A stretch of 63,324 bases of DNA, filler included, from Reclinomonas americana ATCC 50394 (Eukaryota): the NCBI GenBank assembly GCA_048213135.1. It is 48 parts of 48 records of this genome, joined end to end, with 100 filler letters (N's around TTAATTAATTAA, not from the genome) between each part and the next. Parts side by side here need not be neighbours in the genome. Positions count along the whole stretch, not along the records: positions 5,324 to 6,553 come from AFZH01026060.1; 47 more parts are not named here. The stretch is one strand, 5' to 3'. The notes beneath the pieces are model-generated. The model was not told where the DNA came from. It did no database searches and worked only from the letters and a program-made list of their open reading frames with translations. The first letter of the stretch is position 1; every line of letters begins with the position of its first letter. This document shows, piece after piece, positions 5,324 through 6,553 of this stretch. The position numbers and the translations under genes were made by a program.

Positions 5324-6553
5324 CGCTGCTGCTGCACACTCACACGTTCCTCCGCCAGCCGCTGCTGAAGCTCCTCGGTGACACGCCGTCTCTCTTCGGC
5401 AAGCCGCTCCTGGACCTCCTTCTGCAGCCGTTGTTGAACCTCTTCCTCCATGCGCTGCTGCGCACCCACACGTTCCTCCGCCAGCCGTTGTTGAACCTCC
5501 TCCTCCATGCGCTGCTGCGCACTCACACGTTCCTCCGCCAGCCGCTCTTGGAACCTTTCCTCAAGCTCCTGACGCGACACAGCAGCCTCCTCCAGCATGG
5601 TCTGCTGATCGCGGATGGCCTCCACAAGAACGGCAACAACGGGGCCATAGTCCACCTTCTTGTAGTGCTCTCCACGCACCCCTCTCACATCCGACACCAA
5701 CTCTGGGAACAGCTGCTCGAGCTCCTGCGCGACGAAACCAACAGCAGAACTTCCGACAACCTTGCCAAATTCGCGAGAAACCTGTAGTCGTTGGGCACAG
5801 TCAGTGAGATTGTAAAAGATGCACAAACTGACATCAAAGCCGGACGCAAGCCAAACCTCATTCCACTCGTACCGACGACCCTGGAGACGCAGAACCACAG
5901 AAAGCGCACTTTCAATAGGACGCACATTGGACTTCAGTTTCGCGTCGGACATGCTAACAGTGACAACATGGTTCGTCGAGTCATCGGTGCGGTAGACGAG
6001 CTGCACAATTGAACATGATGAGCACAGGCAGGAGAACACAAAAACGCTGACAAGGAAGACACGCAACATCAGTGCCATCAAAGAACACGTTAATCTTGCC
6101 GGACGCCGGAGTCGGATCATTCGTATTCGTACTAAGCGTCACAAAGCTCGTGGAAACGCTCGAACCAGTGCTAATTGTGCCAGCCTCCAAACTACCCGCG
6201 GTCGTCACACTGCCACCAGTGATCAAACCACCAGCAGTCACAGTCGACCCAGTGCTGATTGTGCCAGCCTGCATGCTGCCAGTCGTCGTCAAGCTGCCGC
6301 CAGTGATCAAGCCACCAGCAGTCACCGTCGAGCCGGTACTGATCGTGCCAGCCTCCATACTACCCGCGGTCGTCACACTGCCACCAGTGATCAAGCCGCC
6401 AGCAGTCACAGTCGAGCCGGTGCTAATCGTACCAGCCTGCATGCTGCCGGTTGTCGTGAAACTGCCGCCAGTAATCAAGCCACCAGCAGTCACCGTAGAG
6501 CCGGTGCTGATCGTGCCAGCCTGCATGCTGCCAGTCGTCGTCAAGCTGCCGCC
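5324..6553 (-). CDS. Spliced tailspike-like protein: 28-aa G/T/S repeats + peptidase S74 intramolecular chaperone + coiled coil (partial at both ends)
   Basis: Removing introns 6001-6067 and 5782-5856 gives ...FFDGTD|LVYRTDDS...SDAKLKSNVRPIESALSVVLRLQGRRYEWNE|VSREF...GFVAQELEQLFPELV...VDYGPVVAVLVEAIRDQQ, which carries the S74 signatures. Confidence 0.88.
6165..6553 (-). repeat. 84-bp coding tandem repeat (TTTGSMQAGTISTGSTVTAGGLITGGSx), at least 4.5 copies
   Basis: cagtRatcaa recurs at 6217, 6301, 6385 and 6469. Confidence 0.95.

Follow-up and report, generated by a model that had tools for sequence, protein, structure and literature searches.

The window analysed here, a stretch of 63,324 nucleotides from the Reclinomonas americana assembly, joins 48 contigs, each about 1.2 kb long and unrelated to the others. 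We found that the minus strand of positions 5324–6553, one complete contig of 1230 nt flanked by the N/TTAATTAATTAA spacers, carries a fragment of a fibre-type gene, which is the sole gene on this contig and whose reading frame is open at both contig ends. All the sequence features listed in the preliminary description are present on this strand, and the layout it proposed, a repeat shaft followed by a linker, a Peptidase_S74 (S74) domain and a helical tail, is real:

6068..6553, minus strand: exon 1, open at its 5' end, covering the repeats and the linker as far as ...FFDGTD (from the open frame 5981..6601)
6160..6553, minus strand: shaft of 84-nt (28-residue) Gly/Thr/Ser tandem repeats, 4.7 copies visible (Tandem Repeats Finder)
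6001..6067, minus strand: candidate intron 1, 67 nt, donor GTTGCGT and acceptor CAG (joins two frames, +1 shift)
5857..6000, minus strand: exon 2, carrying the rest of the linker and the opening half of the S74 domain, including the catalytic residues (homologue alignments)
5782..5856, minus strand: candidate intron 2, 75 nt, in frame and stop-free, GTTTGG...ACAG (gap relative to homologues)
5695..5949, minus strand: Peptidase_S74 (PF13884) match, intron 2 included (Pfam)
5324..5781, minus strand: exon 3, open at its 3' end, with the second half of the S74 domain (GFVAQE, VDY...LVEAI) and an E/R/Q-rich tail (alignments)
5329..5646, minus strand: long predicted helix, from the C-terminal helix of S74 onward (AF2 model)

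The 84-nt repeats of the shaft (83% matches, score 522 in Tandem Repeats Finder) run off the contig end, so the 4.7 copies are the visible part only, and since the contig stops within a tandem repeat at each end, short-read collapse may have altered the copy numbers. When five repeat copies were compared, pS was 0.50 and pN 0.11, giving a pN/pS of 0.22; copies 1 and 4, for example, are separated by seven synonymous and no non-synonymous changes. Since the copies differ mostly at synonymous sites, the reading frame is under selection. A single-sequence AF2 model of the shaft as a monomer (pLDDT 74.6) contains beta-strands only, roughly four in each repeat, and predicts that the 28-residue repeats form a beta-solenoid. 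A Foldseek comparison of the shaft model with the PDB gave no match at E ≤ 0.001, and a wide VIA-align search with the same model returned generic beta-helices only (best Z 8.2). Among these, tailspikes (Pam1, Z 7.1; K5A lyase, Z 6.9; HK620, Z 6.8) matched the shaft no better than unrelated beta-helices did. The shaft repeats matched none of the PHROG families and nothing above the cut-off in Pfam, where FapA appeared only below threshold (16.6 bits against 31).

Two GT–AG introns in the fibre gene are well supported, as judged from the sequence. The frame of the shaft meets a stop 20 nt into exon 2, so that no single open reading frame is available unless exactly 67 nt are removed. Splicing across 6068|6000 would yield the linker, which then measures 35 residues between P-TP and SD, as many as in the homologue P0108; the linker given in the preliminary description is this spliced reading, and requires intron 1. 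The second intron is in frame. With intron 2 retained, the Pfam S74 match spreads 85 residues over 57 profile positions, and P0108, the closest relative, aligns in MAFFT with a gap of exactly 25 residues at this site. When intron 2 was removed, 150 of 156 homologues gave a higher phmmer score, with a mean gain of 22.7 bits, although the set had been chosen with the unspliced query; the six homologues that favour the unspliced reading (e.g., P0043, P0069, and P0070) have a long insertion of their own at the site. Read as protein, intron 2 would give 25 hydrophobic residues including two Cys, whereas the natural insertions of the homologues are charged.

Both candidate introns resemble those of a host housekeeping gene. 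The aspartate aminotransferase gene on the contig at 30488–31707, which served as a host reference, has introns of 74, 65, 72, and 70 nt, GTTGCGT at three of its five donors, and CTSAY branch-like motifs, and one of its introns (72 nt) is in frame and stop-free, analogous to intron 2. The aminotransferase ORF itself matches chytrid fungi, Willaertia, and transcriptome sequences at about 37–43% identity, none of them a close relative. GTTGCGT was counted 27 times in the window; 10.8 ± 3.3 occurrences were expected, and none of 100 shuffles reached the observed number. Taking GT–AG ends, a length of 65–75 nt, a GTTGCGT-type donor, a CTSAY motif about 20–27 nt before the acceptor and T-richness as the marks of a host intron, intron 1 has all of them and intron 2 has all but the exact donor (GTTTGG). 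The branch-like motif is CTCAT, about 21 nt ahead of the acceptor, in intron 1 and CTCACTGAC, 23–27 nt ahead of the acceptor, in intron 2. GC is 0.48 in both introns, with T at 0.43 in intron 1 and 0.35 in intron 2, as compared to an exon GC of 0.54–0.61. The claim of two spliceosomal introns, one of them with a GTTGCGT donor, is therefore supported by the sequence and by the match to the aminotransferase introns.

These observations bear on whether the contig could be a bacterial or phage contaminant without introns, in which the two frames would be overlapping genes or the product of an assembly frameshift and the 25 residues a natural S74 loop. Some contigs of the assembly are indeed bacterial (GC 0.68–0.69; their domains include Apiosidase-like, HisKA_3, and aldose epimerase), six of the 156 homologues prefer the unspliced reading, and the nearest relatives by the S74 domain alone look bacterial or phage-like. 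However, a single open reading frame is impossible unless exactly 67 nt are removed, both removed stretches are GT...AG, T-rich and of GC 0.48, with host-like length, donor, and branch motif, and the 25 residues are hydrophobic with two Cys where natural insertions are charged. The GC of the contig, 0.58, also lies apart from the 0.68–0.69 of the bacterial contigs. We consider contamination extremely improbable, and to this extent the earlier argument against a phage or bacterial contaminant holds. Its further step, that introns make this host DNA, does not follow, because mirusviruses carry tens of thousands of GT–AG introns according to passages of one study (PMC12768974).

The S74 domain is real. 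The Pfam profile PF13884, whose curated gathering score is 22 bits, matched at 43.9 bits (E 2.9e-11) over profile positions 1–57 of 58, at residues 18–102 of the translated window:5326-6000:-. The motif SDAKLK, with the Ser codon at 5949–5947, Asp at 5946–5944, and Lys at 5934–5932, keeps the Ser-Asp-x3-Lys spacing intact and aligns with SD..LK of the homologues. GFVAQE and VDY...LVEAI, both named in the preliminary description, are likewise found and aligned, and the latter opens the helix of the AF2 model. Among PHROGs, 21 of the 23 matching families belong to the ‘tail’ category (best E 2.5e-19), and all of the matches fall at the C-terminal end of the profile. In the available text on the ICA family, the catalytic Ser/Lys dyad and an Asp are conserved, with S578, D579, and K583 named as invariant, and trimerisation-dependent self-cleavage through the Ser/Lys dyad is described as established for the S74 family (PMC3742443).

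The tail is unusual in its length. In the AF2 monomer model, residues 46–151 of 152 form one helix (106 residues, block pLDDT 91–98), which continues unbroken for at least 93 residues past the S74 core, with the frame still open where the contig ends inside the helical tail. Among 149 homologues, the median number of residues after S74 is 19, and only three reach 90. Glu, Arg, Gln, and Lys make up 62% of the tail, and a 57-nt (19-residue) repeat is present in 2.4 copies at 5425–5562 (91% matches, Tandem Repeats Finder). Hydrophobic residues recur every four positions, without a heptad pattern. Of the coiled coil with 19-residue repeats proposed earlier, the repeats and a long predicted helix were found and the heptad pattern was not; we infer that the tail may form a trimeric coiled coil.

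Homologues of the fragment are numerous, and none found was close. A representative library contained 13,888 proteins at E ≤ 1e-3 and 70 at E ≤ 1e-10. A word-based search with the S74 and tail piece gave no match among 5379 near-length and 8000 longer candidates, probably because the E/R/Q-rich tail crowds the words. With the S74 domain alone, the homologues were flat at 72–80 bits and included a ‘tail fiber domain-containing protein’ from a Zixibacteria MAG, while the top full-length matches of the unspliced query were metagenomic proteins of very large size, rich in Asn and with multiple S74 domains, on contigs of 50–70 kb. The PDB sequence search gave a single weak match, the ‘putative tail fiber protein’ 8jov (E 0.0032).

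The best full-length match was P0108 (106-bit domain), a 677-residue protein from an 8.7-kb contig of a Logan assembly. The two proteins are collinear, as P0108 has a shaft of short SLTT[ST]G-type repeats, a 35-residue neck, and then S74; the alignment has no gaps over either exon junction, and both share a RGV-G--YK-VDY stretch. However, identity in the S74 region is 42%, and the repeats of P0108 have 11 residues instead of 28. At its N-terminus P0108 also has a Pro-rich stretch and a hydrophobic anchor, and it ends about 10 residues past the S74 helix, without the long tail. In IMG/VR, the piece from the window found 17 loci at 27–41% identity, none of them close, and P0108 matched none of 22 candidate stretches. 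In the JGI metagenomes, the two-sequence alignment query matched none of 152 stretches, and the single query found 39 loci with 23–54% identity over their best segments, again none close. When 56 fetched loci were compared by tblastn, S74 was found in all 56, the shaft marginally in one (L001, E 4e-4), and the tail in none.

The reading that we narrowly favour is that the contig holds a fragment of a spliced, protein-coding nuclear gene of fibre type, belonging to the intron-rich eukaryote that accounts for most of the assembly, resident in its genome and spliced like host genes. The introns speak for a host gene: they match those of the aminotransferase gene, and their density lies above the mirusvirus averages quoted (at most 0.65 per kb). 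The fibre gene has two introns in 1.23 kb (1.6 per kb), nearer to the aminotransferase gene with five in 1.22 kb. It is possible, though on balance rather unlikely, that the fragment instead encodes the attachment fibre of a eukaryotic virus spliced in the nucleus (a mirusvirus, a polinton-like virus or virophage, or a nucleus-dependent giant virus) or an endogenous copy of one. In such a virus, the introns would be host-like because the host spliceosome removes them. The mirusvirus study counts 37,703 GT–AG introns, with a length peak near 80 bp and CYSAC/CTGAC branch motifs (PMC12768974, in part), which resemble the 67 and 75 nt and the CTCAT and CTCAC/CTGAC motifs seen here. The same passages give an intron density 14-fold higher in virion genes, and 0.62–0.65 introns per kb for one isolate present as an episome and an integrant (PMC12768974). 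The huge Asn-rich multi-S74 metagenomic proteins that head the matches of the unspliced query, and the arrangement of P0108 as an N-terminal membrane anchor, a shaft, and S74, also speak for a virus. By contrast, the relatives in IMG/VR reach at most 41% identity, P0108 has none there, and the 1.6 introns per kb exceed the viral averages quoted. The term ‘tail fib’ is absent from the available text of the mirusvirus paper (PMC12768974), and the 54 other ORFs scanned in the window gave no viral hallmark domain, a weak argument given that the contigs are unlinked.

The GC of the contig and its GC3 are within the host range, which argues against a virus: GC3 is 0.65 in the fibre gene, and the other eukaryotic ORFs of the window span 0.53–0.81. 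The Pfam-backed host exons, however, have a GC3 of 0.81, and the relative synonymous codon usage (RSCU) of the fibre gene correlates with theirs at r = 0.51, as compared to 0.47 with the bacterial contigs. This weak fit to host housekeeping exons counts in favour of a virus, and it could reflect a foreign origin or a gene expressed at a low level; codon usage does not separate host from foreign descent.

Fibre genes of polinton-like viruses (PLVs), virophages, and giant viruses of protists are among the closest known parallels. Passages of one study describe S74-capped fibre genes as ubiquitous among the polinton-like viruses integrated in protist genomes (PMC12220804), and the setting in a protist genome is shared with the gene here. 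The fibres in these passages are large and repetitive with a chaperone-of-endosialidase domain at the end, and a repetitive shaft with S74 is found here too. They differ in pairing S74 with laminin-G, collagen-like, adenovirus-fibre, BppL, or phage-tail-repeat domains (PMC12220804), none of which was detected here with Pfam. The only PLV introns mentioned in these passages are group I introns, with no spliceosomal ones (PMC12220804), which again counts against a viral gene. In the literature naming Peptidase_S74, as far as titles and the starts of abstracts go, the fibre genes of polinton-like viruses were, besides MYRF, the one further setting that involves eukaryotes.

Eukaryotes have reused the S74/ICA module, a textbook case for a part taken from phages. 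As an example of its C-terminal chaperone form in phages we take the K1F endosialidase. The gene described here resembles the phage tailspikes and fibres with S74 chaperones in having an S74 domain above the Pfam cut-off after a shaft of repetitive beta-structure, together with Ser-Asp-x3-Lys, a GFVAQE-type motif, and a VDY...LVEAI helix. Unlike these, it is broken by two spliceosomal-type introns in place of one uninterrupted ORF, and its S74 domain is internal and not a discarded cap at the extreme C-terminus.

To our knowledge, MYRF is the sole studied cellular use of S74/ICA. Like MYRF and Dictyostelium MrfA, the present gene is eukaryotic and intron-containing, with an internal ICA domain, and cleavage in either case would leave two products of considerable size. 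Both retain the catalytic Ser, Asp, and Lys, as far as the MYRF passages go (PMC3742443). A membrane-bound transcription factor of the MYRF/MrfA type could explain the internal S74 and the long tail, and as only a fragment is at hand, distant N-terminal domains would lie outside the visible part. However, a beta-repeat shaft takes the place of the Ndt80 DNA-binding domain: Pfam gave no NDT80_PhoG match at E ≤ 1 in the visible part, and the 162 residues before the linker, the place of the DNA-binding domain in MYRF according to the passages available (PMC3742443), consist of Gly/Thr/Ser beta repeats. The visible part, having no Ndt80 domain, is not that of a MYRF orthologue. A decaying, functionless fibre pseudogene would be at odds with the 362 codons of the spliced gene, which contain zero stops or frameshifts, and with the pN/pS of 0.22. 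We regard these two readings, taken together, as very unlikely.

If the gene is a spliced nuclear fibre gene as we favour, its protein would consist of a 28-residue-repeat beta-solenoid shaft, a 35-residue neck, a Peptidase_S74/ICA chaperone, and a long helical tail. By analogy with the S74 family, the S74 domain and its C-terminal helices would bring three chains into register, and this registration would template a trimeric neck and align the three shafts. Ser180 and Lys185, in the numbering of the visible spliced piece, would be positioned only at that stage for a cut just before Ser180, which would part a stable N-terminal fibre from the chaperone-plus-helix portion. Few members of the family have, as here, an internal S74 domain with at least 93 residues after it, so the cut may leave two functional parts, as in MYRF, instead of removing a small cap. 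The fibre might be destined for the cell surface, an organelle, or a virion. The S74 module would ultimately be of viral or bacterial origin, and a host-resident fibre gene may be a domesticated or an old endogenous copy. No paralogue of the fibre gene was found among the other 47 contigs of the window, which counts against this reading.

Either the phage module sits in a cellular gene or it sits in a virus spliced in the nucleus. More speculatively, and with greater doubt than the nuclear fibre gene itself, we suggest a second, MYRF-independent capture of S74 by a cellular eukaryote, in which the gene would be maintained by selection as a host gene and self-cleavage would release or arm a cellular fibre from its helical anchor. 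S74 would then lie between a beta-solenoid fibre and a helical stalk, and the fibre might be adhesive, extrusive, or located at the cell surface; the preliminary description had suggested a surface or extrusome fibre, perhaps for prey capture or adhesion. If cellular, a spliced and selected S74 fibre gene could represent a novel way for cells to employ trimerisation-gated self-cleavage; if viral, it could mean that nucleus-spliced viruses have a high density of host-like introns in their fibre genes. An Rfam scan of the whole window gave zero matches at the gathering thresholds. Open reading frames without family support also run across the plus strand of the contig at 5324–6553; these are mirror images of the repeats and were rejected as genes.

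The contig at 5324-6553 was found to carry a fibre-type gene fragment in which a repeat shaft leads into an S74 domain (Peptidase_S74/ICA, the self-cleaving chaperone of phage fibres) and the frame is split by two probable introns; this confirms the observations of the preliminary description and bears out its interpretation in part. The 63,324-base window consists of 48 separate contigs (1212-1232 nt each, in descending length order) joined by spacers of N/TTAATTAATTAA/N; the contigs are unlinked, so that neighbourhood readings across the spacers are meaningless. The fragment occupies exactly one contig, the adjoining contigs are unrelated, and the evidence for the gene consists of these 1230 bases and the comparisons made with them.

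Features of the gene fragment on contig 5324-6553
6553-6068, minus strand: exon 1, open at the 5' end, where the contig stops within an 84-nt tandem array
6067-6001, minus strand: predicted intron 1, 67 nt, starting GTTGCGT and ending CAG
6000-5857, minus strand: exon 2, end of the neck and start of S74 with S-D-A-K-L-K
5856-5782, minus strand: predicted intron 2, 75 nt, GTTTGG...ACAG, in frame and stop-free
5781-5324, minus strand: exon 3, remaining S74 (GFVAQE, VDY...LVEAI) and an E/R/Q-rich tail, its 3' end off the contig

The array in exon 1 shows 4.7 visible copies (83% matches) of a unit encoding a 28-residue Gly/Thr/Ser repeat, and the exon 3 tail contains a 57-nt repeat in 2.4 copies (91% matches). 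Tandem repeats are where short-read assemblies break; because this contig has them at both ends, both arrays are probably longer than what is visible. The spliced frame has 362 codons and no stops. Synonymous differences far exceed non-synonymous ones among the five repeat copies (pS 0.50 vs pN 0.11; seven and zero changes, respectively, between copies 1 and 4), and the frame has therefore been under purifying selection.

The Pfam profile PF13884 matched at 43.9 bits (cut-off 22, E 2.9e-11), with 57 profile positions spread over 85 residues. In an exhaustive search with phmmer, 13,888 of 1.84 billion representatives reached E<=1e-3 and 70 reached E<=1e-10; E<=1e-30 was reached by none. Among the 23 matching PHROG families, 21 belong to the "tail" category (best E 2.5e-19), and in every case it is the profile's C-terminal end that matches. 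The Ser, the Asp next to it and the Lys at +5 are aligned with the same residues in homologues; passages of PMC3742443 describe them (S578, D579 and K583) as invariant and catalytic. On these sequence matches, the S74 domain is real.

S74 normally ends the protein. Across 149 homologues, the stretch beyond the S74 core has a median of 19 residues (quartiles 13-42), with 30 or fewer in 101 proteins and 90 or more in only three; here, it has at least 93 residues, and no stop has been reached where the contig ends. The best full-length matches include large Asn-rich metagenomic proteins (P0001, P0003, P0009/P0157 and P0005, on contigs up to 70 kb) that have two S74 domains per chain, one internal and one terminal, which shows that MYRF is not the only setting of an internal S74 domain.

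A close relative was not found among representative proteins, in IMG/VR or in JGI metagenomes, and when the S74 domain alone was compared, the homologues were flat at 72-80 bits. The best collinear relative is P0108, a protein of 677 residues from an 8.7 kb assembly contig. It resembles the fragment in having a shaft followed by S74 after a neck of the same length (35 residues from P-TP to the catalytic SD, once spliced); its own features are a Pro-rich N-terminus, a hydrophobic anchor, SLTTSG-type short repeats and a terminal S74.

As an intron reference, we used the aspartate aminotransferase gene on contig 30488-31707 (minus strand), with exon limits from tblastn of two homologues and reading of the DNA. 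It has five very short introns in 1.2 kb (74, 65, 72 and 70 nt, and one cut off), with donors GTTGCGT (three), GTACGCA (one) and GTTAGTT (one) and CTSAY motifs some 13-27 nt upstream of the acceptors; its 72-nt intron is in frame and stop-free. The best protein matches of this gene are from chytrid fungi and Willaertia (about 41-43% identity). In the fibre gene, introns 1 and 2 have GC 0.48 and T 0.43 and 0.35, compared with GC 0.54-0.61 and T 0.19-0.26 in the exons, and CTCAT and CTCACTGAC, respectively, precede their acceptors. The window contains 27 copies of GTTGCGT, in 21 of the 48 contigs, against 10.8 +/- 3.3 expected (0 of 100 shuffles reach 27). It is an unusual donor, with T at +3, and 22 of the 27 sites are on the minus strand, which suggests that for most contigs the stored strand is antisense to the genes.

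The shaft frame hits a stop 20 nt beyond intron 1, the frame downstream is shifted by one, and the phmmer alignment to P0108 is nearly gap-free across the junction; alignments to other homologues are weak upstream of the neck. Intron 1 is very probably genuine. For intron 2, the spliced and the intron-2-retaining protein were scored against 157 fetched proteins. Removal of the 75 nt raised the score for 150 of the 156 proteins matched by both versions (mean gain 22.7 bits), while the other six, each carrying a long insertion of its own in that loop, scored lower; P0010 was matched by the retaining version only. The homologue set was picked with an unspliced query, so the bias in this comparison runs against splicing. 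In the MAFFT alignment with P0108, a single gap opens at this site and spans exactly 25 residues, and we regard intron 2 as probably genuine.

The introns had been read as proof of host DNA. They do exclude phages and bacteria, but eukaryotic viruses are still compatible with them: passages of PMC12768974 report 37,703 GT-AG introns of about 80 nt in mirusviruses, with CYSAC/CTGAC branch motifs and a 14-fold enrichment in virion genes, and passages of PMC12220804 describe S74-capped fibre genes as ubiquitous in the polinton-like viruses that are integrated in the genomes of protists. Nevertheless, two introns per 1.23 kb exceed the mirusvirus averages quoted in PMC12768974 (<=0.65 per kb) and are nearer the five per 1.22 kb of the host gene; the contig GC and GC3 are inside the host range, and IMG/VR holds no relative above 41% identity. 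No viral hallmark domain was detected in 54 other ORFs scanned from the window, which has little weight since the contigs are unlinked, and the weak fit of codon usage to host housekeeping exons (r 0.51) is neutral. We lean towards a cellular gene, a gene of a nuclear or endogenous eukaryotic virus being possible though rather unlikely, and all other explanations together improbable.

Modelled by AF2 from its single sequence, exon 1 is all-beta and has roughly four short strands in each 28-residue repeat (mean pLDDT 74.6, pTM 0.71); the modelled shaft is a beta-solenoid in which every repeat makes one rung. A Foldseek search with this model gave no match at E<=0.001. VIA-align against 48,161 chains placed CsgA on top (Z 8.2), followed by IgA1 protease, VacA, phage tailspikes (Pam1 7.1, K5A lyase 6.9, HK620 6.8), pectate lyases and MinC; for the modelled shaft this is the generic beta-helix class, with scores middling by VIA-align's own scale. 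The repeats matched no PHROG family and nothing over the Pfam cut-off (FapA, 16.6 bits vs 31). Exon 3 was modelled as a single 106-residue helix (block pLDDT 91-98) beginning in the S74 C-terminal helix. The tail is 62% E/R/Q/K with a hydrophobic residue at every fourth position, which could fit a trimeric coiled coil of non-heptad type as well as a single charged helix.

By analogy with the family, three chains would join via their S74 domains and the helical tail, and this association would template the 35-residue neck, which passages of PMC3742443 describe as a triple beta-helix for the phage structures that have been solved, and align the three shafts. Ser180 and Lys185 (numbered on the visible spliced piece) would then be positioned and the chain cut before Ser180. 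In phages, cleavage discards a small cap, whereas here, as in MYRF, the C-terminal product would be large, and the cut may therefore free the fibre from a helical stalk or anchor. What would be new here is an S74-capped fibre whose gene has spliceosomal introns, whose S74 is internal and whose 28-residue solenoid repeat has no family match; its significance is moderate, given the small fragment.

GC lies at 0.51-0.64 in the majority of the other contigs, which contain GA/GT/CAGA microsatellites and encode eukaryotic domains, namely actin, dynein heavy chain, ALG11, RRM, cytosolic carboxypeptidase, TsaD/Kae1, EGF and aspartate aminotransferase. The left-hand contig, 3994-5223 (GC 0.69, Apiosidase-like glycosidase), looks bacterial. 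Together with 37091-38309, 55536-56749 and 56850-58065, it combines GC 0.68-0.69 with uninterrupted ORFs; three of these four carry domains (Apiosidase-like plus DUF5605, HisKA_3, and aldose 1-epimerase), and all four look like high-GC bacterial DNA within a eukaryotic assembly. GC is only 0.42-0.45, far below the rest, in 2664-3893, 48957-50173 and 60797-62012; a different source, an organelle or an AT-rich compartment may account for these three. Near-identical pairs (42366-43583 and 46322-47539, 99.2%; 47640-48856 and 50274-51490, 99.0%; 9311-10539 and 41048-42265, 92.4%; 34451-35670 and 52905-54119, 93.7% over 410 nt) could be uncollapsed alleles, a strain mixture or recent repeats; both members of the last pair carry a TsaD/Kae1 fragment. 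A 387-residue open frame at 1-1161 (plus strand) has a sub-threshold Phage_integrase match (E 1.7e-4, 21.9 bits, cut-off 27.1), and this tyrosine-recombinase-like frame may represent a Crypton/DIRS-type element or a viral integrase.
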